Shown here piece by piece: positions 14,576 to 58,027 of a DNA stretch of 64,000 nt. The notes beneath the pieces are model-generated. The model was not told where the DNA came from. It ran no database searches and worked only from the letters and a program-made list of their open reading frames with translations. Both the position numbers and the translations under genes were made by a program. The stretch lies in contig JALUTT010000048.1 in NCBI GenBank assembly GCA_027021705.1, positions 32,001-96,000 of the forward strand, written 5' to 3'. Within the stretch, counting starts at the first letter, position 1; each line of letters opens with the position of its first letter. The DNA comes from Anaerolineae bacterium. GTDB taxonomy: Bacteria; Chloroflexota; Anaerolineae; S140-20.

Positions 14576-14959
14576 ATGACCGGCGCTACCATCTTGTATA
14601 TCGAAGACAACTTCGAGAACCGCGTTCTGGTCAGACGGGTTCTAGAGGCCTCGGGATACCAGGTCCTGGAGGCGGAGGACGGTCTGACCGGCATAGCCGT
14701 CGCGGAGGAACGCCGCCCGGATCTCATCCTGATGGACATCAACCTGCCCGAGGTAGATGGTTACGAAGTCACCACCCGTCTGAAACAGACGCCAGACCTT
14801 GCCCATATCCCGGTGATCGCGTTGACGGCCAACGTGATGCGAGGCGATCGGGAGAAGAGCCTGGCCGCCGGCTGCGACGGGTACATCCAGAAGCCCATAG
14901 ACGTAGATGCTCTCCCTGACCAAATTGCCGCTTTTCTGAAGCAAAGGAGCGAAGGATGA
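14576..14959 (+). CDS. Single-domain response regulator (DivK/CheY-like)
   Basis: ILYIEDN, PDLILMDINLP, IPVIALTAN, GCDGYIQKPID. Confidence 0.93.
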   Translation: MTGATILYIEDNFENRVLVRRVLEASGYQVLEAEDGLTGIAVAEERRPDLILMDINLPEVDGYEVTTRLKQTPDLAHIPVIALTANVMRGDREKSLAAGCDGYIQKPIDVDALPDQIAAFLKQRSEG

Positions 14960-15429
14960 TGCCCCATCCGCAGACGCAGCCACCGTCTTCTTCAGCCTCA
15001 AACCGCCCTCGCCGACGGGTTGGGATTGCTCCCCAGGATGCCCACGTGTTGGTGGTTGAGGACAACCTGAACAACTTCCTGCTCATCACCCGTCTGCTGG
15101 CCTATCTGGGCGTCAAACAGTGTGAGTGGAAGGCTTCGGGGTGGCAGGTTCTCGAATTTGCCGATGCGATGCCTCAGGTGGACCTGATCCTGATGGACAT
15201 CCACATCCCCGATGAAGACGGCTATCAAGCCCTGGCCCGTCTGCGGGCTGAACCCCGTTTCCAGGACACCCTCATTGTGGCCGTCACTGCCGAGGCGACG
15301 GAGGACAACCTGCAGCGGGCCCGGCGGGCCGGCTTCGACGGCTTCATCGGCAAGCCCATTGATCCCGACCGCTTCCCCGATCAGATCCGACGCATCCTGC
15401 GTGGCGAAGAGATTTGGGAGTTGGGCTGA
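14956..15429 (+). CDS. Single-domain response regulator (CheY-like) with N-terminal extension
   Basis: VLVVEDN, DLILMDIHIP, VAVTA, GFDGFIGKPID; overlaps the previous stop. Confidence 0.92.
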   Translation: MMPHPQTQPPSSSASNRPRRRVGIAPQDAHVLVVEDNLNNFLLITRLLAYLGVKQCEWKASGWQVLEFADAMPQVDLILMDIHIPDEDGYQALARLRAEPRFQDTLIVAVTAEATEDNLQRARRAGFDGFIGKPIDPDRFPDQIRRILRGEEIWELG

Positions 15430-15448
15430 CCCCGCCGGGAGACAGGGC

Positions 15449-17926
15449 ATGGGCGACTCGGTGACGGCTCATCGGTCTTCCTCCCCTACGGCCAGAGCCG
15501 GGATGCGGGGGGGGCTGGGGCGCACACTCCTCAGCGCTTTTCTTGTTCTGGCTATCGTCCCGCTCAGCGTCGTCAGCTTCCTGGCCTCCGTCCAGGGGCG
15601 GCGCAACTTGGAGCGGGAGTTGAGGGAGCGGCTGATGGCCGTCACCACCCTTCGGGAGCAGCAGATTCAGGACTGGGTGACTGCCCAGCAGCAAGTCCTC
15701 GCCATGCTGTGCAGTGAGCCCACATTGATCGAGGCCGCTGAGGCTCTGGCAAACCCGCCCAGCGATCCAGAAATCCGGACCGCGATGCGCCGCCGTTTCC
15801 TTCAGATCATCAACCAGTACCCTGATCTTGAGCGCTTGCTCCTCCTCTCCCCCGAGGAAGGGCGGGTGCTGGTTGCTTCTGAGGCCTGGAAGGAAGGTCG
15901 GCGCTACAACGATGCGGCCCTGGTGGCAAAGGGGGGCGCTGGGCCCTACACCTACATCTCTCCGGGGACCGACTCCGGTGCCCCTACCCTGGTCCTGGTC
16001 CGGCCCGTCCGGGATGGGGAGCATCGGCGGGTGGGAACCCTGGTAGCCCACCTGCGTCTGGAGGCCCTGGGCAGGATCTTGGCGGAGAGCGTTGGGCTGG
16101 GCAGCACGGGACGCACCTATCTGGTGCTCCCTTCGGGGGAGATCCTGACCCAGGAGGGCTTTCTAACCGGTCAGGATGGTCGGCCGGCCATCCTCAATCC
16201 TGCCGTGGAGGCCGCTTTGCGGGGGGGGAACGGTATCGCCACCTACAAGAACGAAGCCGGTATCCTTGTGATCGGGGTTCACCGCTGGCTGCCCGACCCG
16301 GGGATCGCTCTGATCACGGAGCAGGCCCAGTCGGAGGCCTTCTCCCGCTCTGACGACCTGGCTGCAGCCCTCATCGCCACGGCCCTAGGTGCGGCTCTGC
16401 TGACTGCCATCATCGCTACCGTTGTCACTCGCCAGATCACCCGTCCCATCGTCCGGTTGACGGAGATGGCGGTTCAGATCGCCTCTGGTGACCTGGATCA
16501 GCGGGTCCCGGCCACCCGCCGCGACGAGATCGGCATCCTAGCCCGCGCTTTCAACATCATGACCGCCCGCCTCCAGGTCCTCTACGAGAGCCTGGAGCAG
16601 AAGGTCGCGGAACGAACCCGCCAACTCCAGGAGGCCAACGCCGAAATCCGCTACCAGGCGATCCAGTTGGCCACCAGCGCCGAGGTCGGGCGAATCGTCA
16701 CGTCCATTTTGGACCTGGAGAGCCTGCTTCCCCAAGTCGTTGAACTGATCCGCGATGCCTTCTCCGCCTATCACGTTTCCCTCTTCCTGACGGACGAAGA
16801 TGGGAAGTGGGCCCTCTTGCGGGAGGGGACGGGCGCGCTGGGAGAGCGGTTGAAGCGGGAGGGGTATCGCCTGCCGCTGGATGAGAGCAACTTGGTGGGA
16901 CGGGCCATCAACCGACGTGAGCCCTGCTTGGCCGTTGGGGAGGAGCGCCGAATCTTGGCCGACGTCGAGACCTTTCCTTACACCCAGGCCGAGTTGGTTA
17001 TCCCCCTCATCGTCCGGGATCGCCCCATTGGGGCGCTCAGCGTGCACAGCCTGGAGGAGGATGCCTTCGCTGGCTCCGAGGTGATGGTCCTGCAGACGCT
17101 GGCCGGCCAGGTGGCCATCGCCATCGAGAATGCTCGGGCCTATGCCCTGGAGCGGGAGGCCGCCGAGCAACTGCGGGAGCTAGATCGCTTCAAGACCCGT
17201 TTCCTAGCCAACATGTCCCACGAGTTGCGGGAACCCCTTAACACCATCATCGGCTTCTCCCGGGTGTTGCTCAAGGGGATTGATGGCCCCCTCAACGAGA
17301 TCCAACGGCAGGACATTACCTTTATCCACGACGCGGGCCAGCACCTGCTGGGCCTCATCAACGACATCCTGGACATCGCCGCCATCGAGGCGGGCAAGAT
17401 GGAACTGACGATCCGGGAGGTGAACCTGCGTGCGCTGTTGCAGAGCGTGATGGCGACGGCCAGCGCTCTGGTGCGCGGTCGCCCCATCGAACTCCAGTAC
17501 GACGTCGCCCCCGACCTGCCCGTCGTCCACGCCGATCCCCAACGGCTGCGTCAGGTGATCCTCAAGCTCCTCTCCAACGCAGCCCAGTTCACCGAAGAGG
17601 GAAGCATCACTCTGCGGGCCTGGAGTGAGGACGAGCAGGTCTTCATCAGCGTCAGCGACACGGGCATCGGCATTCCTGAGGCCGATCGGGATCGGATCTT
17701 CGAGCAGTTTCAGCGCCTGGACGGGAAGGGATCCCCCCACCTGGGGGGGGTTGGGCTGGGCTTGGCCCTGAGCAAGGAGTTCGTAGAGATGCACGGCGGC
17801 CAGATCTGGGTGGAGAGCGGCGTGGGCCGGGGTTCTACCTTCACCTTCAGCCTTCCCGTCCGCCCCATCCGATCGGGGGACCAGACCGTGACGGACGGGG
17901 TCCAGAGAGACGGGGTGTCCCTATGA
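15449..17926 (+). CDS. Membrane sensor histidine kinase (TM-Cache-TM-HAMP-GAF-HisKA-HATPase)
   Basis: FLANMSHELREPLN H-box, LLSNAAQFT, DTGIGI, GVGLGLAL; start inferred (ORF is open from 15212). Confidence 0.93.
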   Translation: MGDSVTAHRSSSPTARAGMRGGLGRTLLSAFLVLAIVPLSVVSFLASVQGRRNLERELRERLMAVTTLREQQIQDWVTAQQQVLAMLCSEPTLIEAAEALANPPSDPEIRTAMRRRFLQIINQYPDLERLLLLSPEEGRVLVASEAWKEGRRYNDAALVAKGGAGPYTYISPGTDSGAPTLVLVRPVRDGEHRRVGTLVAHLRLEALGRILAESVGLGSTGRTYLVLPSGEILTQEGFLTGQDGRPAILNPAVEAALRGGNGIATYKNEAGILVIGVHRWLPDPGIALITEQAQSEAFSRSDDLAAALIATALGAALLTAIIATVVTRQITRPIVRLTEMAVQIASGDLDQRVPATRRDEIGILARAFNIMTARLQVLYESLEQKVAERTRQLQEANAEIRYQAIQLATSAEVGRIVTSILDLESLLPQVVELIRDAFSAYHVSLFLTDEDGKWALLREGTGALGERLKREGYRLPLDESNLVGRAINRREPCLAVGEERRILADVETFPYTQAELVIPLIVRDRPIGALSVHSLEEDAFAGSEVMVLQTLAGQVAIAIENARAYALEREAAEQLRELDRFKTRFLANMSHELREPLNTIIGFSRVLLKGIDGPLNEIQRQDITFIHDAGQHLLGLINDILDIAAIEAGKMELTIREVNLRALLQSVMATASALVRGRPIELQYDVAPDLPVVHADPQRLRQVILKLLSNAAQFTEEGSITLRAWSEDEQVFISVSDTGIGIPEADRDRIFEQFQRLDGKGSPHLGGVGLGLALSKEFVEMHGGQIWVESGVGRGSTFTFSLPVRPIRSGDQTVTDGVQRDGVSL

Positions 17927-18783
17927 CCACCGTGATCGCGGTAGCCAACCACAAGGGCGGGGTTGCCAAGACCACCACCTGCCTCTCGTTGGGGGGAGGG
18001 TTGGTGGAGCAGGGACAACAGGTGCTGCTGGTGGACTTGGATCCTCAAGCCCACCTGACCGCCTCCTTGGGTATCAAGCCGGAGGGACTGCGCCGTAATG
18101 TGGGCGATGTTCTGTTGGGGCAGCGCTCCCTCGTGGCCGTCAGCCGGGAGACCTCTGTCCGAGGGCTGGATCTGGCCCCGGCTAACCAAGAACTCTTCGT
18201 CCTCGACAAGGTCCTGTACGGACGCCGAGGGTACGAATATCGGCTGCGCGAGGACCTGGACCGGATGTCCGAGCACCTTTACGACGTGATCCTGATAGAC
18301 TGTCCACCGACCTTTGGGACGTTGACCCTCAATGCCCTCACGGCCGCCGATCTGCTCATCGTTCCGGTCCAGTGCGAGTACTACGCCGTCCGCTCGCTCC
18401 ATCAGGTGCTGGAAATGGTCACCCTGGTGCGGCGCAAGACCAACCCCCGGCTTGGCTACCGGCTGCTGGTGACGCTCTTCGACGTGCGCAACAAGGTCCA
18501 CCGGCTGCTCCTGGAGCAACTGCGGGCCCGGTTTTCGGAGACGCTCTTCCAAACCGTCATCCAGGTGGACACGAAGCTGCGGGAGAGCCCGGCCTTTGCC
18601 TTGCCGGTCACCCACTACGCCCCCCGTACTCGGGCTGCGCATCAGTACCGGGCTCTGGCTCAGGAGACGATGGAGGTGGTGGCCCCTCGGACCTCCAGCG
18701 TCCCGACCGTAGCGCAGCCTGCCCAGCCAGAGCCGTCGTCGGTGCGTGAGCCGGTCATCGTGGGAGGCGGGATCGAACCGTAA
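17923..18783 (+). CDS. ParA/Soj/MinD-family ATPase (no adjacent parB)
   Basis: Deviant Walker A NHKGGVAKTT, LVDLDPQAH, IDCPP, IVPVQCEY. Confidence 0.93.
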   Translation: MTTVIAVANHKGGVAKTTTCLSLGGGLVEQGQQVLLVDLDPQAHLTASLGIKPEGLRRNVGDVLLGQRSLVAVSRETSVRGLDLAPANQELFVLDKVLYGRRGYEYRLREDLDRMSEHLYDVILIDCPPTFGTLTLNALTAADLLIVPVQCEYYAVRSLHQVLEMVTLVRRKTNPRLGYRLLVTLFDVRNKVHRLLLEQLRARFSETLFQTVIQVDTKLRESPAFALPVTHYAPRTRAAHQYRALAQETMEVVAPRTSSVPTVAQPAQPEPSSVREPVIVGGGIEP

Positions 18784-18842: not shown

Positions 18843-21605
18843 ATGCCTGACGATCGGTTAAAGCGTTCCTTGGAAGAGCTCTTCTCCGATCTAACCCCAC
18901 CGGCCCCGGAGGGGGAGCCCGAGGCGGCCATCCCCCCATCTCTGCCTCCTGAGGAACCGCCCTCGAGGCCGGAGGTTGCCCTCCCACCGACTCCGTCGCC
19001 GGAGCCTATATCCGTTGCCCCCATCGAGGAGCCTTCCCCACCCCCCGGATGGATGCAGCGCCTCTCCCCCCGCCACTGGCGGCTACCGGCCCGGCTGTTG
19101 AGCCTTATGCTGCTGGTCACCCTGCTGCCCCTGATGATCCTCTCACTGCTCTTCTTCCGTGAAGGGGCGCGCGTCGTGGAGAACAGCGAGTTGCGCAACA
19201 TGGAGGCCATTGCCACGGGCCTGGCTCACCAGATAGACCAGTTGCTCTCTGATATGACCAGTGTGACCTCTATACCTGCTGATGAGGCTCCTGAGTTCCT
19301 CGTCCGGCTGCCTGCTGACCGAACGGACCTGATCGAGACCCTGCGGATCTTCTACAACGTGCCGGAGGATGTCGAAGCGTACCGGGAGGCTCGGGCCCGC
19401 TTGGAAGCTCTGGGCTTGTTAAAGCCTCTGAAGGCCGTGCATAGGGAGTTCCGAGCGATCCAGGAAGCCTATCACACCTTTGAGTCTATCTGCATCCTGG
19501 ATGACGCTGGCTACTGCCTGGCCGCCACCGACCCCAAGCTGGTTGGCCGTTCCTTTGCCACCAAGCGTTTCTACCAGATGGCGATGGAGGGCCAGGCTTT
19601 TACCTCCGACATCGAACCGGAGCTAGCGACCGGGCGCTTTGGCGTCGCGTTTGCCCGGCCCATCGTCGCCGACGATGGACGAATTCTGGGGGTTCTTGTC
19701 GCTCGCCTGGATGCCACCCCCATCTGGCGGATTCTGGAGGAGGTCTCCCTGGAGCCGGGGAGCTACGCGGTCCTGGTCAACCGGGACGGCATTATCATCG
19801 GCCACTCCGAGCGGGGGAACATCTATCAGAGCCTAGGGCCACTGTCCTCTGCCGTGCAGGAGGAGATCCGTCAGAGCCGCCGTTTCGGCGTGGAGGCGAT
19901 GCGGGACCTGGGGTTGCCTCAGGTTGCCGAGGCGCTGGCAGCCGCCAAGGGTCCTGGGCACATCCAATACCAGCGGGGAGATCAAGTGGAGTTCATGGGG
20001 TTCGCTCCCCTCCAGCAGCACACCTGGGTGGTGGGTGTGGTCAAACCCCAAGCCCAGTTGCTGGCCCCGCTGGGCGCTTTGGCCAACCGAGCGCTGGTGA
20101 TCGCCCTGGTCGTCGGGCTGATCGCCGGCGGTCTGGCCCTCCAGTTCAGTCACACGATCACCCGCCCTATCCTCCGGCTAACCGAGGTCGCCACCGCCAT
20201 CGCCAGCGGGGACTTGCGGCGAGAGGTGCCCATCGAGCGGGAAGATGAGATCGGTCTGCTGGGTCGGGCCTTCAACCGGATGGCGGCCCAACTGCGGGAG
20301 TTGATCGGAGGGTTAGAGGCCACGGTGGCCGAACGGACTCGGGCCCTTCAGGAGGCCAACTACCACCTCCAGAAGCGGGCCATCTACCTGGAGGCCAGCG
20401 CCGAGGTAGCCCGGGCCATCACCTCCATCCTCGACGTGGACCAGATGCTCCAGCGGACGGTAGACCTGATCCAGGAGCGGTTTGGCTTCTACCACGTTTC
20501 CATCTTTTTGGTGGACGAGGCGGAGGAGTGGGCTGTGGTACGGGCCTCGACGGGAGAGGTGGGGCGGATTATGATGGAAAAGCCCCACAAGCTGCGGGTG
20601 GGTGGACGCAGTATGGTGGGATGGACGGCGGCCCACCGGCAGCCCCGCATCGCCCTGGACGTGGGGGCCGATGCGGTCCACTTCGACAACCCGCTGCTGC
20701 CTCACACCCGTTCGGAGATGACGCTCCCCTTGATGATGCGGGGGCGGCTCCTGGGCGTGCTGGACGTTCAGTCCACCGAAGAGGCGGCCTTCGACGAGGA
20801 TGACGTGCGGGTGCTGCACAGCCTGGCCGACCAGATCGCCATCGCTCTGGAAAATGCCCGCCGGGTCTCCGACGAGGCAGCCCTGCTGGAGGCGACCAGC
20901 CCTCTCTACCGAGCCAGCCGCCGGTTGACGGAAGCGGTCTCCGCCGACCAGGTGGCAGAAGCCTTCATCGCCTCGGTGGTTGCCACCGAAGCCGATGGAT
21001 GCCTCGTCGGGCTTCTGGAGCCGCCGGATAGCGAAGAGCCGGATGCGGTCCACTTCATCGGCTCCTGGGGACGGGATGGAGTGGCCCCTGTCCCCGCCGG
21101 CTCCCGCTTCCCCCTCTCGGCCAGCCCTATCTCCGTCGCCTTCCTGTTGGAGCGTCAGGTGCTGTCCGAGATCGTCGAGGCTACCTCGCTCTCGCCCGAT
21201 CAGATCGCCTACCTGCAACGGGTGGGGGTGCAGGCGCTGATCAACATCCCCCTTCAGGGCGGCAAGAGGAAGATCGGCTTCGTCACCATCTTCCGAAAGC
21301 GCTCAGGCTCTTTCTCGGAGGCCACCCTGCGCCTGTACGAAGCCCTGAGCGGTCAAGTGGCAGTGGCCCTGGAGCGGGTGTGGCTCCTAGAGATCGCCCG
21401 TCGGCAGGCCGAGGAGGAGGCGGCACTGCGCGCCCTCGGCGATCGCCTGGCCCGGGCGGTGGATATGGAAGTGCTCCTCCAGAGCGCCGCCGAGGGGTTG
21501 GAACAGGCCCTGCGGGCCGGAGGGGTCTACATCGAGCTAGGCCCGGCACCGTTGGATGCGGACCTGCCGGGAAATGGGCGGGGAGGGGACAAGCGCCCAT
21601 CTTGA
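18843..21605 (+). CDS. Kinase-less receptor 1: Pro-rich N-terminus, TM-Cache-TM-HAMP-GAF-GAF
   Basis: HAMP EREDEIGLLGRAFNRM; core GAF GFYHVSIFL...PRIALDVGADAVHFDNPLLPHTRSEM; no H-box, GGDEF or EAL motif seen. Confidence 0.85.
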   Translation: MPDDRLKRSLEELFSDLTPPAPEGEPEAAIPPSLPPEEPPSRPEVALPPTPSPEPISVAPIEEPSPPPGWMQRLSPRHWRLPARLLSLMLLVTLLPLMILSLLFFREGARVVENSELRNMEAIATGLAHQIDQLLSDMTSVTSIPADEAPEFLVRLPADRTDLIETLRIFYNVPEDVEAYREARARLEALGLLKPLKAVHREFRAIQEAYHTFESICILDDAGYCLAATDPKLVGRSFATKRFYQMAMEGQAFTSDIEPELATGRFGVAFARPIVADDGRILGVLVARLDATPIWRILEEVSLEPGSYAVLVNRDGIIIGHSERGNIYQSLGPLSSAVQEEIRQSRRFGVEAMRDLGLPQVAEALAAAKGPGHIQYQRGDQVEFMGFAPLQQHTWVVGVVKPQAQLLAPLGALANRALVIALVVGLIAGGLALQFSHTITRPILRLTEVATAIASGDLRREVPIEREDEIGLLGRAFNRMAAQLRELIGGLEATVAERTRALQEANYHLQKRAIYLEASAEVARAITSILDVDQMLQRTVDLIQERFGFYHVSIFLVDEAEEWAVVRASTGEVGRIMMEKPHKLRVGGRSMVGWTAAHRQPRIALDVGADAVHFDNPLLPHTRSEMTLPLMMRGRLLGVLDVQSTEEAAFDEDDVRVLHSLADQIAIALENARRVSDEAALLEATSPLYRASRRLTEAVSADQVAEAFIASVVATEADGCLVGLLEPPDSEEPDAVHFIGSWGRDGVAPVPAGSRFPLSASPISVAFLLERQVLSEIVEATSLSPDQIAYLQRVGVQALINIPLQGGKRKIGFVTIFRKRSGSFSEATLRLYEALSGQVAVALERVWLLEIARRQAEEEAALRALGDRLARAVDMEVLLQSAAEGLEQALRAGGVYIELGPAPLDADLPGNGRGGDKRPS

Positions 21606-21614
21606 TTCCCTCGA

Positions 21615-22605: not shown

Positions 22606-22651
22606 TGGGGTCGTGTTGATGGGGTCTTGATGGAGCCGTTGGAGACGACGC

Positions 22652-35422: not shown

Positions 35423-35509
35423 TGCGGTTCTCCTGGGCTTGCCAGCGTGGCGATCCGGCGGGTGGGGAGATCGCGGATTGACCCGGAGCACCGGAAGAAG
35501 GTACAGGGT

Positions 35510-41949: not shown

Positions 41950-42013
41950 GGGGGCGGGAGCCCCATGAGTTGTCGTTTTGCCGGGAGTTGTACAACAAAA
42001 GGAGGCGCGGAAA

Positions 42014-48373: not shown

Positions 48374-48454
48374 TCCCGGAGTCCTCGTCCTGGTGTGGTG
48401 AGCCGAGGACAAGAGTAGGAAGTTCAGAGTTCTGAGGTACAGGTGAGGGGAAAA

Positions 48455-51400
48455 ATGGCCGACTCAACCCACTCAGCCCACCCACAAGACCTCCTCGACC
48501 GGCTCCTGTCCATCGTCGCTGGGATAGACGAGGGGGAGCAGCGTGAGGCCCTGCAGCAGCCGTTGGAGGCGCTGCGGAAGGCGCTTGCCGTCTCCTCGGA
48601 TCGGAGCCGTCGCCTCTACGAGGCCAGTCGGGCGATCAGCCTGGCCGCCGATATGGCTGAGGTGGGACGGGCTCTGATGGACTTCATCGCGACCTGTGAC
48701 GTGGATGTGGGCCGGCTCTTTCTCTTCCGGGCGGATCCGTCTGGTGAGCCGGTTGAGATCGAGATGCGCGAGGGATGGAAGCGGAGCGGTGAGCCCTCTC
48801 AGGTTCCCTACGGCACCCGTTTCCCGCTGGCCGATTACCCTCTGCGTGAGGCTATGCAGCCTGACCAGGTCTTCATCTGCTCCGATGTGGGGACGGATCC
48901 CCGGTTGAATGAGACCATCCGGGCGATGATGCTCGCCTCCGAACTGCACTCCTTCATCATCGTCCCGATGACGGTGGAGAGGCGGTGGTTGGGTGCCATT
49001 CTCGTAGGACGGGAGGTCCCCTCCACGTATGATGAAGGGTTGGTCTACGCCCTCTGGACGCTGGCCGGACAGGCTGCGGCCACGCTGGAGAACCGCCAGC
49101 TCCTGGCCGACTTCCAAGGAACAGCCGAGCAGATGGTCCTGCTCAACCAAATCCTCCAGACGGCTACGACGACCCTAGACCTCCGGGAGGCCCTCGATTC
49201 CATTGCCCGACAGACGGCCCTGGCGCTGAACAGGATGTGCGGCATCTTTCTTCTCGAGGAAGATGGCGAGCACCTGCGGGTGGGCTGCTTGTGGGGACCC
49301 GATGGCCATACCCACACGTCTGAGGAGGCCCTCGTCTTCCCTCTCTCAGAGAATCCCGGTATGGAGGCAGCCGTTCGGGAGCAGAAGACCCAGGTCCTTG
49401 ACCAGGTTCAGACCCGTGCCCGGGGAACAGCCCGCCACCTGGCCCAACTCTCCCGGGCGGAGACGGCCGTCTACGCCCCCTTGCTGACCCGAGAGCGTGT
49501 GGTGGGGGTGCTGGAGGTCTCCGCCCCCGTCGGCCATCCCCCCTTCACGCCGGAGCAGATCGGCACGGTCTCCACCATTGCCCGCCAGATGGGTATCGTG
49601 GTGCAGAATGCTCGACTCTTCCAGGAAACCCAGGCCGCTCTGGAGGAGACAGACCTGCTCCTGGAGACCAGCCGGGCCCTGGCCCTCGCCCTGACCCCCC
49701 AGGAGGTGGCCGATCTCCTGGCAGAGCGCTTGATGGCCACAGGCGTTGACCGTTGTAGCGTGGTTCTCTGCGATACCTACGGAGAGGATGGGCTCCCTCA
49801 GTGGGCGGAGGTGATGGCCATCGGCGACGTGGACCCGGAGAGGCGAAAGCTGGGCCTGCACTACCGCTATCCCATCGAAACCTACCCTACGATACAGAAG
49901 TTCCTCCGTGCTCCAGAAGCCTTCGTGGTGACCGATGTGCGCACCGATCCCCGCCTCACCGAGGAGGAGCGAATCTATATGGAAAATATCGGGGGGGTGG
50001 CTTTCATCGCCGTCCCGATGGTGCGCCGGGGACAGGTCCTGGGCTACATCTTCGCCGAACACAGCCATCCCTATACCTTCAGTCAGCGGGAGCTTTCCCT
50101 GTACCAGGCGATGGCCGATCAGGCAGCCGTGACGCTGGCCAACATGCGTCTCTTCGAGCGGGTTCAGCAAGGGTGGCGCGAGACCGAGGTCCTCTATCAG
50201 GTTGGCCGCTCCTTGGTCGCTGCCTCTTCCTTGGAGGAACTGCTGGAGTGTGCGGCCCAACCGGCCATCGAGGCAGGGGCGTCGGCCGCCAGCCTCTACC
50301 TCTTCGACCCGAATGAGGCGGAGCAACCGGAGTGGGGCATCCTGGCCGCCCACTGGCAGCGCGAGGGTGATCCTCCCTTCCCCGTGGGTACTCGGCTCTA
50401 CTTGGCCGATTTCCCCTTCACCCAGCTCTTCCTGGCGGATCCCCAGACCCCTTACCTGATCGGGGATATGGAGGCGGCCGAGCAGGTGGATGAGACTACC
50501 CGGGATGTGGCCCTGCAACTGGGGGTGCGAGCGCTGGTTGTCATCCCCTTGGTGACCCGGGAGCGTCGGATTGGTATCCTGGCCATTCCCTGGGATGAGC
50601 CCCACCAATTCAGTGAGGAAGAGGAGCGGCTCTATCGGGCGCTGGGACCGTTGGCAGCGCCGGTCACGGAGAGCTTGCGCCTACTGGAGGACACACGGCG
50701 TCGGGCACTCCAGTTCCAGACCGTGACGGAGGTTGCCCAGGCGGCCAGTACCATCCTGAACCTGGATGAGTTGCTCTCCCAGTCGGTGGAGTTGATCAGG
50801 GAGCGCTTTGACCTCTACTATGCCGGTATCTTCCTGGTGGATGAATACGGGCAGTGGGCGGTGCTGCGGGCGGGCACCGGCGAGGCCGGCCGGGCGCAGA
50901 TCGAGGCCGGTCACCGGCTGGAGGTGGGGGGCAACTCGATGATCGGCTGGTGCACGGCCCACGGAAAGCCCCGGGTAGCCCTAGACGTGGGGAAGGAGGC
51001 CGTGCGCTTTGAGAACCCCTACCTGCCCGATACCCGCTCGGAGATGGCCCTGCCCCTCATCAGCCGGGGGCAGGTGATCGGTGCGATGACCATCCAGTCC
51101 ACCCAGGTCGCTGCCTTCACCGACGAGGATGTCACAATCCTCCAGGCTCTGGCCGACCAGTTGGCCGCGGCCATTCAGAATGCCCGTCTCTTCGAGCAGA
51201 CCCAGCAGGCCCTGCAGGAGGTCAGCCGGGTTCACCAGCGTTACATCCGTGAGGCCTGGGAGGAGTACACAGCCCATCGTCAGCGTCCGACAGGCTACTT
51301 CCTGGGCCCCGACGGCATCACGGCTGCCGACGTCTGGCGACCGGAGATGGCCTTGGCGGTGGAGCGGGAGGACCTGCTGATCCTCTCCGAGGCCGACGAC

Positions 51401-54400
51401 GAAGTAGTTGGCGGGAAGAACGGAGATGAACGCCCCAAGGCAGCCCTGGCTGTGCCCATTAAGCTGCGCGATCAGGTGATCGGGGCGCTGGACTTCTTCG
51501 AGCCCGATGAGGCCCGGGAATGGGATGAGGATGACATCGCCATCGTAGAGGCGGTGGTGGATCAGGTTGCCCAGGCTCTGGAGAGCGCCCGCCTCTTCGA
51601 GAAAACCCAGACCCAGGCCAGCCGGCTGGCCCTCCTGAACGAGATCACAGCCCGCCTGAGCACGGCCCTGGATCGGGATGAACTCTTCCGTATCTTGAGT
51701 CAGGAACTGGGCCGCATCCTTCCTTTCCACCAGCTCCACATCGCCCTCTACGACCCTCAGCGGGATTCCGAGCACTGCCGGCTGATCCCTCTAGGGAAGG
51801 AAGCCTTCCACGCGGTGCAGACCTTCCCCGTCGAGGATAGCCTGATGGGAGAGGTGTTGCAGAGCGGTCGTCCTCTGTTGTTGAAAGACCTCGCCCTCTC
51901 GTCGGAAGAGATGGGGTCGAACCACCAAGACCGCCGCTATCTCCTCCAGACGGGCGTTCGCTCGGCGATCTTCGTCCCCCTGGGAACCCATGGGCGCCAA
52001 CTAGGGGTGCTGAGCGTGGGCCATGCAGAGGCCGGCTTCTACACCCAGGATGACCTGGCCCTCTTCCAGCAGGTTGCTGCTCAGGTGGCCGTTGCCCACG
52101 AGAACGCCCGCCTCTTCCACGAGACGCGGCGTCGGGCCCGTCAGTTGCAGGACCTCTACGATGCCGGGCTTGCCCTCTCCTCCATCGCCTCGCTGGAGGA
52201 GGTGATGGAGCGGGTTGCTCAAGCGGCTCAGAAGCTGACCCAGGCCAGCCTGACCACGGTCTTCGTCTACGATGAGGACCTGGGTCGCTATCGTCGGGCC
52301 GCCGCGGCCGACGCGCCGGAGCGGCTGGCCTCCTCGCCGGTCATCTACCCCCGTCGGGGAGGCTTCACCGACAAGATCGCCCGCAGCGGTCGCCCCCTCG
52401 TCGTCCCCGATGTCGAGGCCGATCCCGACGTGAACCCGGGTGCTCTGGAGTCGGGGATGCACTCCCTGGTGGGAATTCCGATGCAGATGATGGGACAGGA
52501 GGCCATCGGGGTCATCTTCTGTGCCCATACCGAGAAGCATTACTTCACCGAGGAGCACGTGGAGACCCTCTCCTTCCTGGCCGTCCAGGCGGCGATCGCG
52601 CTGCAGAACGCCCGATCCTTCGCCCAAGTGGAACGCCGGCGGCTGCAACTGGAGACCGCGGCCGAGGTCGCCCGGGTGACCACCGCCGTTCTGGACCTGG
52701 ACGAGCTGCTGGAGCGGACGATCAGCCTGCTCCAAGAGCGGTTTGGCCTCTACTATGCGGGCATCTTCCTGCTGGACGAGACGGGGTCGTGGGCGGTGTT
52801 GCGGGCCGGAACCGGAGAGGCTGGTCGTCGGATGGTGGAGCGTGGACACCGGCTGCAGGTAGGCGGCAATTCGATGATCGGCTGGTGCACGGCCCATGGA
52901 GAGCCCCGCGTGGCCCTGGACGTGAGCAAGGAACGGGTGCGCTTCATCAACCCGCTGTTGCCCGACACCCGCTCGGAGATGGCCCTGCCCCTCATCAGCC
53001 GGGGGCGGGTGATCGGCGCGATGACCATCCAGTCCGATCAGACCGAGGCCTTCTCCCGGGCCGACGTCGCCACCATCCAACTGATGGCCGACCAGTTGGC
53101 CAACGCCATCGAGAACGTCCGGCTCTTCCAGGAGACCCAGACCAGCCTGGTGGAGACCGAGGCCCTCTATCGGGCCAGCCGGCGGGTGGGGGAGGCCCAG
53201 TCCATCGAAAGCGTCCTAGAAGGTGCGGCAGAGTTGGCCGAGGTTCTGATCCCGGAGGCCGGCAGCATCTCCATCAGCCTGATTACCCGCTGGGACGAGG
53301 CCGGAGAGCCGACGGCTGCCGACATTCACGTCCTCTCCCTGGGCACGGGCCAGCGGATCCCGCTGCCGACCCTCACCGATTTTCCCATCACCGATCGGGA
53401 GACGGCGAGGATGGTCCTGGGCGAGCCCGAAGCAGTCGTCATCTACGCCGATGCCGACGATCCCACCTGTTCTATGCCCGAGGAGGTGCGGGAGGTGATG
53501 CACAACAGCGGCACCCGGGGAATGGTCACGCTGGGCCTGCTCGCCCGAGGCCGCTCCTTGGGATTCCTCTCCTTCAGCAGTTCGGCGCCACTCACCGAGT
53601 TCCCGGAACGTCACGTCCGGCGTCTCCGCACCCTGGCCGACCAGATCGCGGTGACCCTGGACAACCTGCAGCTCTTCCGGCAGACTACGGAGGCGCTGGA
53701 AGAGACCCAGACCTACTATGACATCAGCCGGCAACTGCTGGAGGCCCAGACGGTGGAAGAGGTGCTGGCGGCTGCGCTGGCCTTTCTGCAGGAGCCGGAT
53801 GTGGACAGTGCCAGCATCTTCCTGGTGGGTGGACCGCCGGAGGCCCTATGGCTGGAGCGGGTTGCGGTCAAGGGCATTCGGGAGAGGACCGAAGCCCCGC
53901 TGGGCGATCGGATCCCGATGGACCTGTATGGACTAGATCGCCTGCTCGCTCCCGGTCGTACGGTTGTGGTCGAGGATGTGGCCCGCGATACCCGGATTAC
54001 GGAGCCGCTGCGGGAGATGTTGACAGAGTTGGGAAAGCGGGCCGTCGTCTTCGTGCCGATGCAGACGGGGCAGCAGCTGGTAGGGACTTTGCTGGTTGCC
54101 CAAAACTATCCCTACCGCTTCTCCAAACGTCAGATCCGGCTCTACGAGGTTGTGGCGGCCCAGACATCGGTAGCCTTGGAGAACCGGCGCCTGCTGGAGG
54201 AGACCCGACGGCGGGCCGTCCAGTTGGAGGCAGCGGCCAAGGTGGGGCGTTCGGCCACCTCCATCCTGGAGCGCGAGCAACTGCTGCCGGCCGTCGTCGA
54301 GTTGATCCGCGACCACTTCGGCTACTACCACGCTCAGATCTTCCTGATAGACGAGACGGGGCGGTGGGCGGAACTCCAGGCCAGCACCGGTGAGATCGGC

Positions 54401-56242
54401 AGGATATTGCTGGAGCGAGGACATGCTCTGGAGGTGGGCAGCGACTCGGTGATCGGCTGGGTGACCCGTTATGGGCAGCCCCGCGTCGCCCGCGTGGGCG
54501 AGGACCGGGTTCACTTCCGCAACGAACTCCTGCCTGATACCCGGGCCGAGTTGGCCATCCCTCTCATCCTGGGAGGCCGCGTCATCGGAGCCTTGGATGT
54601 GCAGAGCACCGACCCCGAAGCTTTCGGCGAGGACGAGGTCGCGGTGCTTCAACTCGTGGCGGACCAGATCACCATCGCCATCGAGAACGCTCGCCTCTAC
54701 GACGAGCAGAAGCGGGTGGCCGAGAAGCTGCGCGAGGTGGATCGGCTGAAGTCTCAGTTCCTGGCCAATATGTCCCACGAGTTGCGGACACCGCTGAACT
54801 CCATCATCGGCTTCTCGCGGGTGATCCTCAAGGGCATTGATGGTCCCCTCACCGACCTGCAGCGGCAAGACCTGGAAGCGATTCACAACAGTGGTCAACA
54901 CCTGCTAGGGTTGATCAACGACATCCTGGACCTCTCCAAGATCGAGGCAGGTCGGATGGAGCTGGTCTTCGAGGAGGTCAACCTCTACGACATCATCGAA
55001 GGCGTGATGGCGACGGCCAAGGCGCTGGTCAAGGACAAGTCCATCGAGCTGCGCAAGGAAGTTGCCGAGGACCTGCCGACCATTATCGCCGACGGCAAGC
55101 GGATCCGTCAGGTGATGCTCAACCTGCTCTCCAATGCGGCCAAGTTCACCGAAGAGGGATACATCTGCTTGCGAGCCCAGGCCGACGACCGCTACGTGAC
55201 CATCAGCATCGAGGACACCGGGATCGGTATCCCGCCGGAGAAGCACGAGGAGATCTTCCAGGAGTTTACCCAGGTGGATGCCTCTACGACACGCCGTTAC
55301 GCGGGAACGGGCCTGGGGCTGCCCATCAGCCGCCACTTCGTCGAGATGCACGGCGGGCGGATCTGGGTGGAGAGCGAACTGGGGAAGGGTTCGACCTTCT
55401 ACTTCACGCTGCCCATCCGTGGACCCAAGCAGGAGGAGGAGCCTTCTGAGGGCGAGGGTGTGGCCGTAGAGGTGGGGAAGAAGCTGATCCTGGTGGTAGA
55501 TGACGACGAGAGCGTCATCACCCTCTACAAGCGCTATCTGGACAAGCGTGATTACCAGGTCGTTGGCCTGACAGAGAGTCAACAGGCACTCCAGTGGGCG
55601 ATGAACCTGAAGCCCTATGCCATCATCCTGGACATCCTAATGCCGCGCAAGGATGGCTGGAGTGTAATCCAGGAATTGAAGTCCACGCCGGAGACCCGGG
55701 ACATTCCCGTGATCATCTGCAGCATCGTGGGTGATACCGGTCGGGGCTTCAGCTTGGGGGCTGCTGACTACTTGGTCAAGCCGATTATGGAAGACGAACT
55801 GCTCAATGCGCTGTCCCGGCTAGACGGACAAGCCCAAGAGAAAGTCCTGATCATTGACGACAACCCTGACGACATCCAGTTGCTGCGCCGCATCCTGGAG
55901 GAGGGGCAGGGGTGCATGGTGCTGGAGGCCAGCAACGGTGCTGACGGCATCGCCCTGATCCAGGCCGAGCGTCCTAATCTGGTCATCTTGGACTTGATGA
56001 TGCCGGAGGTGGATGGCTTCGCCGTGTTGGAGGCGGTTAAGGCCAATCCCTCTACTCGGGATATCCCTATCATCGTGGTGACGGCGAAGGACCTCTCCGA
56101 AGAGGATCGCCAACGGCTTGCAGGACGCACCATCTCTCTGTTGCAGAAAGGGATCTTTCAGCAGGAGGAGCTGCTCGAGGATGTGGCTGAGGCTTTGGCC
56201 CGGTTGACGGCTAACCAATCCCGGTCCCAAGAGCAGGCGTAG
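48455..56242 (+). CDS. Giant cytoplasmic hybrid histidine kinase (about a dozen GAF domains, HisKA, HATPase, two REC)
   Basis: FLANMSHELRTPLNSIIGF, NLLSNAAKFT, DTGIGI, GTGLGLPI; REC1 ILDILMP and REC2 ILDLMMP. Confidence 0.93.
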   Translation: MADSTHSAHPQDLLDRLLSIVAGIDEGEQREALQQPLEALRKALAVSSDRSRRLYEASRAISLAADMAEVGRALMDFIATCDVDVGRLFLFRADPSGEPVEIEMREGWKRSGEPSQVPYGTRFPLADYPLREAMQPDQVFICSDVGTDPRLNETIRAMMLASELHSFIIVPMTVERRWLGAILVGREVPSTYDEGLVYALWTLAGQAAATLENRQLLADFQGTAEQMVLLNQILQTATTTLDLREALDSIARQTALALNRMCGIFLLEEDGEHLRVGCLWGPDGHTHTSEEALVFPLSENPGMEAAVREQKTQVLDQVQTRARGTARHLAQLSRAETAVYAPLLTRERVVGVLEVSAPVGHPPFTPEQIGTVSTIARQMGIVVQNARLFQETQAALEETDLLLETSRALALALTPQEVADLLAERLMATGVDRCSVVLCDTYGEDGLPQWAEVMAIGDVDPERRKLGLHYRYPIETYPTIQKFLRAPEAFVVTDVRTDPRLTEEERIYMENIGGVAFIAVPMVRRGQVLGYIFAEHSHPYTFSQRELSLYQAMADQAAVTLANMRLFERVQQGWRETEVLYQVGRSLVAASSLEELLECAAQPAIEAGASAASLYLFDPNEAEQPEWGILAAHWQREGDPPFPVGTRLYLADFPFTQLFLADPQTPYLIGDMEAAEQVDETTRDVALQLGVRALVVIPLVTRERRIGILAIPWDEPHQFSEEEERLYRALGPLAAPVTESLRLLEDTRRRALQFQTVTEVAQAASTILNLDELLSQSVELIRERFDLYYAGIFLVDEYGQWAVLRAGTGEAGRAQIEAGHRLEVGGNSMIGWCTAHGKPRVALDVGKEAVRFENPYLPDTRSEMALPLISRGQVIGAMTIQSTQVAAFTDEDVTILQALADQLAAAIQNARLFEQTQQALQEVSRVHQRYIREAWEEYTAHRQRPTGYFLGPDGITAADVWRPEMALAVEREDLLILSEADDEVVGGKNGDERPKAALAVPIKLRDQVIGALDFFEPDEAREWDEDDIAIVEAVVDQVAQALESARLFEKTQTQASRLALLNEITARLSTALDRDELFRILSQELGRILPFHQLHIALYDPQRDSEHCRLIPLGKEAFHAVQTFPVEDSLMGEVLQSGRPLLLKDLALSSEEMGSNHQDRRYLLQTGVRSAIFVPLGTHGRQLGVLSVGHAEAGFYTQDDLALFQQVAAQVAVAHENARLFHETRRRARQLQDLYDAGLALSSIASLEEVMERVAQAAQKLTQASLTTVFVYDEDLGRYRRAAAADAPERLASSPVIYPRRGGFTDKIARSGRPLVVPDVEADPDVNPGALESGMHSLVGIPMQMMGQEAIGVIFCAHTEKHYFTEEHVETLSFLAVQAAIALQNARSFAQVERRRLQLETAAEVARVTTAVLDLDELLERTISLLQERFGLYYAGIFLLDETGSWAVLRAGTGEAGRRMVERGHRLQVGGNSMIGWCTAHGEPRVALDVSKERVRFINPLLPDTRSEMALPLISRGRVIGAMTIQSDQTEAFSRADVATIQLMADQLANAIENVRLFQETQTSLVETEALYRASRRVGEAQSIESVLEGAAELAEVLIPEAGSISISLITRWDEAGEPTAADIHVLSLGTGQRIPLPTLTDFPITDRETARMVLGEPEAVVIYADADDPTCSMPEEVREVMHNSGTRGMVTLGLLARGRSLGFLSFSSSAPLTEFPERHVRRLRTLADQIAVTLDNLQLFRQTTEALEETQTYYDISRQLLEAQTVEEVLAAALAFLQEPDVDSASIFLVGGPPEALWLERVAVKGIRERTEAPLGDRIPMDLYGLDRLLAPGRTVVVEDVARDTRITEPLREMLTELGKRAVVFVPMQTGQQLVGTLLVAQNYPYRFSKRQIRLYEVVAAQTSVALENRRLLEETRRRAVQLEAAAKVGRSATSILEREQLLPAVVELIRDHFGYYHAQIFLIDETGRWAELQASTGEIGRILLERGHALEVGSDSVIGWVTRYGQPRVARVGEDRVHFRNELLPDTRAELAIPLILGGRVIGALDVQSTDPEAFGEDEVAVLQLVADQITIAIENARLYDEQKRVAEKLREVDRLKSQFLANMSHELRTPLNSIIGFSRVILKGIDGPLTDLQRQDLEAIHNSGQHLLGLINDILDLSKIEAGRMELVFEEVNLYDIIEGVMATAKALVKDKSIELRKEVAEDLPTIIADGKRIRQVMLNLLSNAAKFTEEGYICLRAQADDRYVTISIEDTGIGIPPEKHEEIFQEFTQVDASTTRRYAGTGLGLPISRHFVEMHGGRIWVESELGKGSTFYFTLPIRGPKQEEEPSEGEGVAVEVGKKLILVVDDDESVITLYKRYLDKRDYQVVGLTESQQALQWAMNLKPYAIILDILMPRKDGWSVIQELKSTPETRDIPVIICSIVGDTGRGFSLGAADYLVKPIMEDELLNALSRLDGQAQEKVLIIDDNPDDIQLLRRILEEGQGCMVLEASNGADGIALIQAERPNLVILDLMMPEVDGFAVLEAVKANPSTRDIPIIVVTAKDLSEEDRQRLAGRTISLLQKGIFQQEELLEDVAEALARLTANQSRSQEQA

Positions 56243-56244
56243 GT

Positions 56245-56300
56245 CCCCGCCGAGGTGGGAAAGGATAGCATCGTTGTGCTTCCACCCCGCCGAGGTGGGA
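56245..56300 (+). repeat. 16-bp direct repeat CCCCGCCGAGGTGGGA x2, 40-bp period
   Basis: Exact copies at 56245-56260 and 56285-56300; each can form a CCCGCC-GA-GGTGGG mini-hairpin. Confidence 0.8.
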
Positions 56301-56362
56301 TCTACCGGCAACTGGACCTTATCCCCCAAAAGTGCGCGCGGAAGGAAGGAGTCAAAGAAGCC

Positions 56363-58027
56363 ATGGGCAAGAATCACTTTTGGCTGAAGTGCCCGCAATG
56401 CGGCCATCGTTTCCTCTACAAAGGGCTCGTAACAGCCTGCCCTCGTTGCAGCCACGCCTGGCTGGACGTCGAGTACGATTACGACGCTCTGGCCCCCCGT
56501 CTGCGCCAACTGTTGGAGAGCCGCCCCTTTACCAGCATGTGGCGGTATCGGGAACTGCTCCCGGTGCTCCACGACGAGAACATCGTGACGATGGGGGAAG
56601 GCGGAACACCGCTGCTCCACAGCCAGCATCTGGGAATGATGCTAGGGCATCCCTACATCTACGTGAAGGACGAACGGCAGGGACCGACGGGCTCCTTTAA
56701 GGATCGTCAGGCTTCCCTGGCTATCTCCCTTATGAAGGAGAACGGGATCACAGAGGGTGTATTGGCTTCGACGGGCAATGTTGCCATCTCCTACTCCGCC
56801 TACTCAGCCCTGGCCGGCATCAAGCTCTGGGCCTTTGTCACCAGCACGGTGCCGGCCGACAAGATGCGCGAGGTTGCCCTCTATGGCACGGAGGTGATCA
56901 AGGTTACGGCGACCTACGATCAGACCAAGGAAGTGGCGGCCCGCTTTGCTCAGCACAAAGGGCTCTACCTGGATCGAGGCATCCGCGCTTTTGCCAGCCG
57001 ACAAAGTATGAAGACCATCGCCTACGAGATCGCTGAGCAGTTGGGCTGGCGGGCCCCCGACTGGTACATCCAGGCCGTCAGCGGGGGCCTCGGCCCTGTC
57101 GGCGTCTGGCAGGGCTTCGAGGAACTCTACCGGATGGGGCTGATCCCCAACCTGCCCAAGCTGGCCAGCATCCAGGTGACCGGCTGCGCCCCGATGGTCC
57201 ATTCCTTCCGCAAGGGGCTGGCCGAGGTGGAGCCCGTGCTCAACCCGCAGACCCTCATCGCTACGGTGGCGACGGGTAATCCAGGACCGGCCTATCCCTT
57301 CCTGCGGCGCGTCGTGCTGGAGCACGGAGGGGCCTTCGAAGAGGTCACCGACGAAGAAGCGTTCCGGGCGATGCGGGTGATGGCCCGAATGGAAGGGCTT
57401 TCTATGGAACCGGCTGCCGCTATGGCTTTCGCCGGTCTCTTCAAGCTGATCCAGAAGGGGATCATCCGTAAGGATGAGATCGTCGTCGTCAACTGCTCGG
57501 GTCACACCTTTCCCGTGGAGAAGCACCTGCTGGACGAGGAGTGGGTCCACAGCCTGGAACTGCCCTCGGAAATGGTCGCCGAGCCAGGGCCGGCTGTTCT
57601 AAAGGAAGAGGGGCTTCTGGCCTCGCTGGAACGGCTGGACGACCGGGTGCGGAGTGTGGCCATCATTGACGATGAGCCCGATGCCGTCCGCCTGCTGCGG
57701 CGGATCATCCAGGCCAAAGGCGGCTACCAGATCTACGAAGCCTATGATGGTCGCCAGGGCCTCCAGCTCATCCGCGAGAAGCGGCCTGACCTGGTGCTGC
57801 TGGACCTGATGATGCCGGGGATGGACGGCTTTGCCGTCCTGACGGCGATGAAGGAGGACCCTCAGATCGCGACCATCCCGGTGATCGTCATCACGGCCAA
57901 GGACCTGACCACTCAGGAACGGCGTTGGTTAAGCGGGAAGGTGGAGTCCCTGCTGCAGAAAGGATCCTACATGGACCTGGATGCCCTGGATGCGCTGGTT
58001 GGCGAGCTCTCGACGGCGGTAGGCTGA
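56363..58027 (+). CDS. Threonine-synthase-like PLP enzyme fused to a C-terminal receiver domain
   Basis: CxxC...CxxC, SMWRYRELLP, MGEGGTPL, PTGSFKDR, ASTGN, SGGLG; then IIDDEPD...PDLVLLDLMMP...VITAK. Confidence 0.9.
   Translation: MGKNHFWLKCPQCGHRFLYKGLVTACPRCSHAWLDVEYDYDALAPRLRQLLESRPFTSMWRYRELLPVLHDENIVTMGEGGTPLLHSQHLGMMLGHPYIYVKDERQGPTGSFKDRQASLAISLMKENGITEGVLASTGNVAISYSAYSALAGIKLWAFVTSTVPADKMREVALYGTEVIKVTATYDQTKEVAARFAQHKGLYLDRGIRAFASRQSMKTIAYEIAEQLGWRAPDWYIQAVSGGLGPVGVWQGFEELYRMGLIPNLPKLASIQVTGCAPMVHSFRKGLAEVEPVLNPQTLIATVATGNPGPAYPFLRRVVLEHGGAFEEVTDEEAFRAMRVMARMEGLSMEPAAAMAFAGLFKLIQKGIIRKDEIVVVNCSGHTFPVEKHLLDEEWVHSLELPSEMVAEPGPAVLKEEGLLASLERLDDRVRSVAIIDDEPDAVRLLRRIIQAKGGYQIYEAYDGRQGLQLIREKRPDLVLLDLMMPGMDGFAVLTAMKEDPQIATIPVIVITAKDLTTQERRWLSGKVESLLQKGSYMDLDALDALVGELSTAVG

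Follow-up and report, generated by a model that had tools for sequence, protein, structure and literature searches.

How can ten receptors that carry no output domain of their own pass on what they sense? This question is raised by a 43-kb locus of an Anaerolineae bacterium (Chloroflexota; contig JALUTT010000048.1 of assembly GCA_027021705.1), lying within a stretch of 64,000 nucleotides that was analysed as a whole (the window, to which positions refer unless another contig is named). There, 20 genes, all on the + strand, fill positions 14576-58027. The listing of open reading frames (ORFs) and Pfam searches bear out the gene content given by an earlier reading of the letters alone (the original prediction), namely ten receptors, two kinases, two stand-alone receivers, a ParA and an enzyme-receiver fusion. 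Our analyses revealed that one and the same 55-residue tail closes all ten receptors, that it resembles the first third of a GAF domain and stands where related proteins have a kinase transmitter, and that such loci recur in other Chloroflexota genomes. We read the locus as a lineage-specific many-receptor extension of a two-component system, in which the receptors would act on shared kinases, and give this reading about an even chance. The receptor, kinase, receiver, ParA and enzyme genes are the following:

14576..14959, + strand: REC1, single-domain receiver of 127 aa (Response_reg 97 bits; 56-70%-identical orthologues beside related arrays)
14956..15429, + strand: REC2, single-domain receiver of 157 aa (Response_reg 73 bits)
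15449..17926, + strand: membrane sensor histidine kinase, dCache-HAMP-GAF-HisKA-HATPase (Pfam, ORF from 15212; two transmembrane (TM)-like segments)
17923..18783, + strand: ParA/MinD-type ATPase with a KGGVAKTT P-loop (AAA_31 167 bits, CbiA, MipZ)
18843..21605, + strand: receptor 1, dCache-HAMP-GAF-GAF-tail (Pfam; tail 21384-21563, 64 bits)
22652..24361, + strand: receptor 2, PilS-like 6TM-GAF1-GAF2-tail (Pfam; tail 24176-24340, 85 bits; six TM-like segments)
24365..26596, + strand: receptor 3, dCache-HAMP-GAF1-GAF2-tail (Pfam; tail 26381-26554, 87 bits)
26589..28820, + strand: receptor 4, soluble, two Cys-rich GAFs-GAF1-GAF2-tail (Pfam, four GAF stretches; tail 28638-28802, 76 bits; no TM-like segment)
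28852..31806, + strand: receptor 5, multi-TM-HAMP-GAF1-GAF2-tail (Pfam; tail 31579-31770, 78 bits; eight TM-like segments)
31803..33698, + strand: receptor 6, PilJ/NarX-like sensor-HAMP-GAF1-GAF2-tail (PilJ 44.5 bits, HAMP, GAF; tail 33471-33632, 81 bits)
33695..35422, + strand: receptor 7, TM-PAS-GAF-GAF2-tail (PAS 68 bits, GAF; tail 35231-35389, 86 bits)
35447..37243, + strand: receptor 8, MASE11-GAF1-GAF2-tail (MASE11 89 bits, GAF; tail 37049-37213, 80 bits)
38663..40933, + strand: receptor 9, dCache-HAMP-GAF1-GAF2-tail (Pfam; tail 40736-40900; the modelled receptor)
43562..48373, + strand: receptor 10, multi-TM-eight GAFs-tail (Pfam, eight GAF stretches; tail 48173-48337, 82 bits)
48443..56242, + strand: soluble giant hybrid kinase of 2,599 aa, 12 GAFs-HisKA-HATPase-REC-REC (Pfam; no TM-like segment)
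56255..58027, + strand: threonine-synthase-like pyridoxal phosphate (PLP) enzyme with a C-terminal receiver, PALP-REC (PALP 217 bits and Response_reg)

The receptors are open frames of 569-1,603 aa, in which a variety of inputs (dCache, PilS-like 6TM, other multi-TM, PilJ/NarX-like, PAS, MASE11 and Cys-rich GAF domains) is joined to HAMP and GAF domains. TM-like segments were found in nine of them by a crude hydropathy scan and are absent from receptor 4. The GAF, GAF_2 and GAF_3 profiles scored above cut-off in 10/10 receptors, and none of the ten matched a kinase, cyclase, phosphodiesterase or DNA-binding family in Pfam at E<=0.01; at the same threshold HisKA and HATPase_c occur in the two kinases, 15449-17926 and 48443-56242. 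Behind seven of the ten there is no coding room either, the next gene overlapping the receptor or starting 0-31 bp past its stop. Pfam results for all ten receptors, NCBIfam for one, a structure model and Foldseek search for one C-terminal module, and the lack of room behind the stops together uphold the earlier claim that no cryptic output is present.

An alignment of the last 400 residues showed a strongly conserved GAF1, followed by a helix, a smaller GAF2 (replaced by a full-size GAF in receptors 1 and 10) and the tail. The tail is shared by 10/10 receptors, has the consensus LFEEAQRRAxRExLxxxITARIRxSxDLETxLQTAAxELxQALGAxxVxVRL, and is followed by a stop codon within 5-21 residues; when tail ORFs on related contigs are included, the proteins end 1-59 residues past it. 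Searching 53,824 six-frame ORFs of the genome with a hidden Markov model of the tail yielded ten domain scores of 64-87 bits, all of them belonging to the ten receptors, and the best single domain elsewhere reached 25 bits. Strong tail matches are confined to the array locus within the 5.19-Mb genome. The original prediction had taken the GAF modules as the common element of the receptors; these are indeed shared, but the defining element is the truncated-GAF tail, not just the GAF modules.

Profile comparison with hhalign aligned the tail to the N-terminus of GAF1 (connector helix, alpha1 and beta1) over 47 columns with a probability of 90.5% and an E-value of 1.4e-6. The alignment stops at beta1, and a complete alpha/beta GAF core is missing behind the tail helices. 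A degenerate DHp domain was considered as well and rejected, as the probability against a kinase DHp profile was 0.2%. From these alignments, we conclude that the tail is a homologue of the first third of a GAF domain followed by a stop, that is, a GAF stub. Its origin by truncation of a GAF would fit the matches of the tail profile to internal GAF N-termini in many multi-GAF proteins. An AlphaFold2 model of residues 395-756 of receptor 9, based on a 63-row alignment and with a mean predicted local distance difference test (pLDDT) score of 90.6, comprises GAF1, a 52-residue helix, GAF2, and a long helix (276-320) turning into a short one (325-339), with a confidence that stays at 92-96 up to residue 350. 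Foldseek matched this model to the tandem-GAF segments of PDE5, PDE2 and CyaB2 and to single GAFs of the PtsP and fRMsr (free methionine-R-sulfoxide reductase) type, and to nothing else. The tail is thus predicted to form a helical hairpin and represents no new fold and no hidden enzyme; judging by the pLDDT of 92-96 up to residue 350, it may pack within its own chain.

When the tail profile was run against 1.84 billion representative sequences, 11,627 matches were obtained, a number that is no census of the family, since the top of the list consists mostly of multi-GAF proteins with several internal partial matches; by our own count the match lies at the C-terminus in about 40 of the 150 best. 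In rare relatives, six of six sequences read (P0138, P0154, P0232, P0269, P0242 and P0147), a unit of small GAF2 and tail is repeated twice in tandem, which may reflect a history of duplication and permutation in this type of GAF. Circular permutation, in which the tail would supply the N-terminal part that the small GAF2 lacks, is unlikely to hold generally, because the tail also follows full-size GAFs (receptors 1 and 10, P0008, P0011) and GAF2 occurs without a tail in kinase forms.

Conservation of the tail was assessed in 63 sequences. The mean frequency of the top residue was 0.53 in the tail, 0.57 in GAF1, 0.36 in the GAF2 core and 0.17 in the ten residues past the tail, and a basic patch (R304, R305 and R308) had frequencies of 0.68-0.79. 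Judged by these frequencies, the tail is kept by selection and is constrained as GAF1 is. Its position is conserved as well: it is C-terminal in 51/51 tail ORFs on 12 related contigs and in 62/65 tail ORFs from 80 further loci. Homologues of receptor 9 exist in two forms, a kinase-less one of about 720-770 aa, which ends in the tail in all eight sequences read, and a hybrid kinase of about 1,250 aa. The exchange is clearest in the pair P0008 (tail) and P0006 (kinase), which share 80% identity over about 870 aa and diverge precisely where a GAF alpha5 helix ends; past this junction P0008 runs into the tail and P0006 into HisKA, so that the tail stands in for HisKA-HATPase-REC and occupies the position of the transmitter.

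Since the tail corresponds by homology to just the N-terminal third of a GAF, with a stop behind it, the receptors might be regarded as decaying remnants of kinases, pseudogene-like truncations or assembly artefacts. We attach practically no credence to this explanation, which is already contradicted by open frames of 569-1,603 aa, by a stop position kept in 51/51 and 62/65 relatives and by the constraint on the tail. The host assembly (5.19 Mb in 183 contigs, 94.9% complete, 4.5% contamination) is matched at this locus by contigs from two runs of another study, which map collinearly and are about 99% alike (10,546 nt over 25948-36493; 7,139 nt from 36466, to 40999 on the array). These contigs break at repeated GAF1 stretches. 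Their collinearity rules out misassembly as the source of the gene order in the array.

The locus is not peculiar to this bacterium. Among 41 relatives, the tail was matched at E<=1e-5 in 20, of which 13 have clustered multi-copy arrays; the largest, in genome G005, has up to 19 tail copies in 50 kb. Maps of 12 contigs showed the recurring order REC1-REC2-(sensor kinase)-ParA-receptors-(GAF hybrid kinase)-PALP-REC, and the array of genome G001 is collinear with the window. In a sample of 401 Chloroflexota genomes, with a tail threshold of E<=1e-12, the tail was found in 35, a REC2 orthologue in 33 and both in 31, the exceptions being two weak REC2-only and four single weak tail-only genomes. 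Going by sequence matches, REC2 is the best marker of the system. All 31 system genomes, which span seven families and a second class, encode a full-length PALP-REC fusion, as do nine others, and REC2 also has relatives in public genomes of Chloroflexota (at least 461 stretches), including those of Anaerolineae, Thermoflexia, Ardenticatenia and Aggregatilineales. In the complete genome of Aggregatilineales bacterium SYSU G02658 (CP146238.1), REC2 precedes four or more GAF proteins that carry the tail at the C-terminus with lower scores. The receptors thus occur together and in synteny with REC2, the enzyme-receiver fusion and ParA in many Chloroflexota genomes, in line with the co-occurrence in relatives that the original prediction had called for; of its trio of receptors, kinase and ParA, the last was found in 26/31 system genomes and not in the other five. 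The complete genome G016 contains REC1-REC2 with a 1,941-aa HAMP-GAF hybrid kinase, and PALP-REC elsewhere in the genome, and neither a kinase-less tail receptor nor the cluster ParA was found in it. Because G016 has this core without both, receptors and ParA seem to be additions to a two-component core.

The receptors have multiplied by duplication. The GAF1 coding DNA of receptors 2 and 3 (23398-23697 and 25654-25953) is 94% identical over 300 nt and 99% over 85 nt, in a background of 60-81% DNA identity in other receptor paralogue pairs. As judged from these identities, this stretch has undergone local gene conversion or a very recent duplication. Gene conversion alone was rejected as the cause of the high GAF1 similarity, as it holds for receptors 2 and 3 only; with recent conversion limited to this pair, the conservation of the GAF1 protein is not mere homogenisation. 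The visible duplication and conversion could suggest that the receptors are functionally unconnected with the genes around them, being tandemly amplified GAF proteins of the membrane that bind ligands (for ligand buffering, as a scaffold, or with an unrecognised GAF1 activity) and are clustered by duplication only. The resemblance of GAF1 to small-molecule-binding GAFs of the PtsP/fRMsr type is in keeping with this. However, duplication leaves unexplained why the flanking REC1-REC2, kinases, PALP-REC and ParA are kept across at least seven families and a second class. An fRMsr chemistry is moreover excluded in GAF1, which has no cysteines at all and hence lacks the catalytic cysteines of the fRMsr-type GAF (sequences read). 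We consider this explanation very unlikely.

Cysteine motifs occur in two GAFs only, those at the N-terminus of receptor 4, where two 504-nt tandem copies with 72-74% DNA identity (26691-27705) each comprise a coiled coil and a Cys-rich GAF with a CLCG motif. These GAFs resemble those of PtsP and fRMsr, and receptor 4 may therefore sense redox state or methionine sulfoxide. Solute-binding genes sit within five arrays (the window, G001, G005, G012 and G011), which argues that the receptors are working ligand sensors; the solute-binding protein at 37385-38659 is probably the ligand-binding partner of receptor 9.

The transmitters of the two kinases of the locus are 56% identical over 388 aa without gaps, and their DHp helices are almost identical, which suggests that they share receiver partners. 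The likely start of the membrane kinase is 15449, the first Met past the REC2 stop. Orthologues of the giant kinase close related arrays. Response_reg scored above cut-off in REC1, REC2, the two receivers of the giant kinase and the receiver of PALP-REC, and the phospho-acceptor residues (DD/ED, LxDxxMP, T/S and KP) are kept in 5/5 receivers, as read by eye from the translations. The enzyme part of PALP-REC matched threonine synthases in the Protein Data Bank (PDB) at E 1.7e-49, contains the SFKD motif with the PLP lysine, and stays below the NCBIfam cut-offs of NF006050 (262 against 303 bits) and TIGR00260 (163.6 against 167.1). As three other ThrC-like genes are present in the genome (32-36% identity), PALP-REC is probably not the housekeeping enzyme. 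No DNA-binding regulator is encoded in the operon, and the domain content points to an output that probably runs via the single-domain receivers and the threonine-synthase-like enzyme. The sole Hpt protein found in the genome (C34:22257-22538; a 108-aa frame, 63.8 bits) is encoded beside an 846-aa multi-GAF protein on another contig (G000:C34:22257-25144) and is a candidate phosphotransfer partner of the hybrid kinase.

The giant kinase carries an internal GAF1-GAF2 cassette that is the same as that of the receptors. Together with the occurrence of tail and kinase forms of the same sensor in close relatives, and with the role of tandem GAFs as dimerisation modules in the solved PDE and CyaB2 segments matched by our model, this would allow the kinase-less proteins to be inhibitory decoys. 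As truncated paralogues, they would lower kinase output by forming dead heterodimers with full-length GAF kinases via the GAF1-GAF2 stalk or by competing for a GAF ligand that both bind. However, the tail is constrained as strongly as GAF1, although its conservation would not be required of a decoy; the receptors have kept diverse, intact sensor domains and dedicated solute-binding proteins; and helix-to-helix pairing of membrane receptors with a soluble kinase would be awkward. A decoy role is, in our judgement, distinctly unlikely.

The distribution of the ParA ATPase is closely tied to that of the receptors. Its deviant Walker A motif, KGGVAKTT, is invariant in eight orthologues, including K11 and K16, and no NCBIfam equivalog model reached its cut-off for the array ParA. 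Cluster-type ParA (E<=1e-62) was present in 26/31 system genomes and 0/370 others, and among the 41 relatives in 8/13 with arrays and 0/28 others; each copy lies beside a tail gene, and G016 lacks both together. The receptors might thus signal to ParA and not to the kinases: the ligand state would alter the stub, this would bind ParA or stimulate its ATPase, the output would be the ParA-dependent positioning of the receptors or of some other cargo, and kinases and receivers would be separate or act upstream. Partners of ParA-type ATPases often use basic helices, and the basic patch of the tail (R304, R305, R308) is conserved. On the other hand, five of the 31 receptor-bearing genomes show no such ParA, and nine of ten receptors are membrane proteins, which fits poorly with nucleoid-based ParA transport. 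On balance we regard signalling to ParA as unlikely.

Our preferred reading remains the many-receptor extension of a two-component system, for which we infer the following contacts and direction of signal flow. The core would consist of REC1, REC2, a GAF-rich histidine kinase and the threonine-synthase-like enzyme gated by its own receiver. To this would be added 2-19 sensors per genome (ten in the window) that, having lost the transmitter, end in the conserved helical GAF stub, usually with a ParA nearby. Each receptor would be a dimeric sensor, in which ligand-induced helix movements pass via HAMP and the tandem GAF stalk to the stub. The stub, the conserved GAF1, or both would then contact the shared kinases and raise or lower their autophosphorylation, and the kinases would phosphorylate REC1, REC2 and the receiver of the enzyme. 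The output would be protein-protein and metabolic and not transcriptional, and ParA would organise or position the receptor assemblies. In the original prediction, too, the receptors would feed the kinases, and they would hetero-oligomerise through their shared GAF modules.

Several observations weigh against this reading. Genome G016 has the core without receptors and with a kinase bearing its own HAMP, which indicates that the kinase works without them. Cluster-type ParA was not found in 5/31 system genomes, and the co-occurrence counts overstate independence, since 24/31 of these genomes belong to one family. The tail is not a fold of its own, because its profile also matches the N-termini of internal GAFs. 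Finally, genomes with more receptors do not have correspondingly larger kinases: the 19 receptors of G005 go with a kinase of 1,022 aa, so that one docking GAF per receptor in a giant kinase was rejected. A more far-reaching version is a receptor array built without chemotaxis parts. Dozens of kinase-less membrane receptors would be assembled through GAF stalk and stub into ParA-organised clusters and dock a soluble giant kinase, and the enzyme would make or remove a small-molecule ligand of the GAF1 pocket, which is almost invariant among the receptors. This version is doubtful; if true, control of a GAF1 ligand by the enzyme would provide the feedback or adaptation for which chemotaxis uses methylation.

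The array also contains four other genes:

21946..22605, + strand: DUF6989 membrane protein, the sixth gene (PF22497, 139 bits)
37385..38659, + strand: periplasmic solute-binding protein (Peripla_BP_6, 192 bits)
40934..41890, + strand: homologue of the Rv3378c-type (UPPS-fold) diterpene synthase (PDB 3wqk family, E 6e-23; no Pfam match)
41978..43543, + strand: homologue of class II diterpene cyclases with a DLDD motif (PDB 6vpt, E 1.3e-66, and copalyl-diphosphate synthases)

The complete gene order is REC1, REC2, membrane kinase, ParA, receptor 1, DUF6989, receptors 2-8, solute-binding protein, receptor 9, the terpene-synthase homologue pair, receptor 10, giant kinase and PALP-REC. Genes mostly overlap or are 0-87 bp apart, the largest gaps being 340 and 141 bp. 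For the sixth gene, the original prediction had to be corrected: the ORF at 21666-22619 that it had named is without a family match and reads like an out-of-frame one, and the DUF6989 gene takes its place. DUF6989 is found inside the arrays of two genomes of different families, the window and G005 (L005:5878-6627, - strand). The solute-binding protein and the diterpene-synthase pair (40934-43543) are likewise non-signalling genes. The pair is also found inside the G005 array (G005:C1:68435-71091, L006/L007); its local GC content of 54%, against about 65%, suggests horizontal acquisition, and the Rv3378c-type homologue would be a passenger or accessory. The 340-bp gap past receptor 1 is filled by a dispersed repeat of about 115-120 nt, located at 21615-21735 (+) and 1596-1706 (-), with 12-bp terminal inverted repeats CCTCCCGCAGGT...ACCTGCGGGAGG. 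It has at least 41 genome copies at 93-97% identity (40 of 333 candidates scored) and about 50-fold higher depth in metagenome contigs, matches no Rfam family, has a fold z-score of -1.4, and looks like an element of the miniature inverted-repeat transposable element (MITE) type. Rfam gave no family at gathering score in the window and a chance-level match only in 21560-21960. The flanks are unrelated to the array, with inositol-lipid genes upstream (- strand) and, directly downstream of the operon at 58221-60818 (GC 57%), a DNA methylase-like gene and a BsoBI-like restriction endonuclease gene.

The arrangement was not found described in the literature (subscription journals not covered), and the passages on Chloroflexi in PMC8199190 concern NarX-like kinases. 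Our reading is therefore of a variant of two-component signalling that was not found described and is possibly a new kind of receptor array. New here are the confinement of strong tail matches to one locus of this genome, the exchange of tail and transmitter at a fixed junction, the rejection of any kinship between tail and DHp, the co-occurrence in 401 genomes, the core in G016 and the independent check of the assembly. Textbook two-component signalling has one sensor and one kinase and, to our knowledge, the chemosensory array is the only well-known bacterial machine in which many receptors feed one kinase. A second, unrelated wiring of many receptors into few kinases would, if true, be a new organising principle, set in a large phylum of filamentous bacteria, most of them uncultured. 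Among the tractable questions it would open are the GAF stub as a portable output cassette taking the place of a transmitter at one fixed point, a novel task for a ParA ATPase, and the puzzle of a receiver-gated PLP enzyme; it would also account for thousands of proteins labelled just 'GAF domain-containing protein'.

Chemosensory arrays (MCP-CheW-CheA-CheY) can have ParA-like positioning ATPases, as in PpfA/TlpT and ParC/ParP. Parts of PMC5706961 deal with such arrays and ATPases. Like them, the locus described here combines, in one place, numerous receptors that differ in input but share a conserved cytoplasmic end, a small number of kinases, single-domain receivers, an enzyme-receiver fusion and a ParA-type ATPase. 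As the original prediction had proposed, the array lacks methyl-accepting chemotaxis proteins (MCPs) and CheW: the MCP signalling domain PF00015 was found neither in the ten receptors nor anywhere in the 94.9% complete genome, and the CheW/CheA coupling domain PF01584 had no match in the genome, whereas control genomes gave matches. The likeness to a chemosensory system, also part of that prediction, stands for the logic only, because enzymes of methylation-type adaptation (methyltransferase and methylesterase) are not present; the array kinases are furthermore of the HisKA type, and clusters of the receptors are putative. The closest proteins are hybrid kinases of Anaerolineae (P0006 and P0010; about 1,250 aa), which are 52-55% identical to receptor 9 over 94-98% of its length and share its dCache, HAMP, GAF1 and GAF2 domains and the junction after the GAF alpha5 helix. 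They go on to GAF3-HisKA-HATPase-REC, whereas the receptors end in a 55-aa stub without a phospho-acceptor or ATP-binding domain. Similarly, the tandem GAF segments of PDE2, PDE5, PDE6 and CyaB2 match the modelled GAF1-helix-GAF2 (Foldseek E 5e-11 to 1e-9); in those proteins the helix-linked GAFs regulate a catalytic effector in the same chain, whereas the receptor chain ends in the stub. Action on a separate kinase is known from NreA, a stand-alone GAF protein acting on the kinase NreB as an auxiliary (third-component) sensor. Our receptors would likewise be kinase-less sensors modulating a separate kinase by contact, and the sensor of NreA is itself a GAF domain. Unlike such single accessory proteins, they comprise up to 19 paralogous membrane receptors with one C-terminal cassette in an operon with ParA. 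Many kinases converge on one relay in Bacillus (KinA-E to Spo0F) and Vibrio (LuxN/LuxQ/CqsS to LuxU). The present system resembles these relays in that many inputs converge on few receivers, and differs from them in that each of their input proteins has its own kinase, whereas the receptors described here would share theirs.

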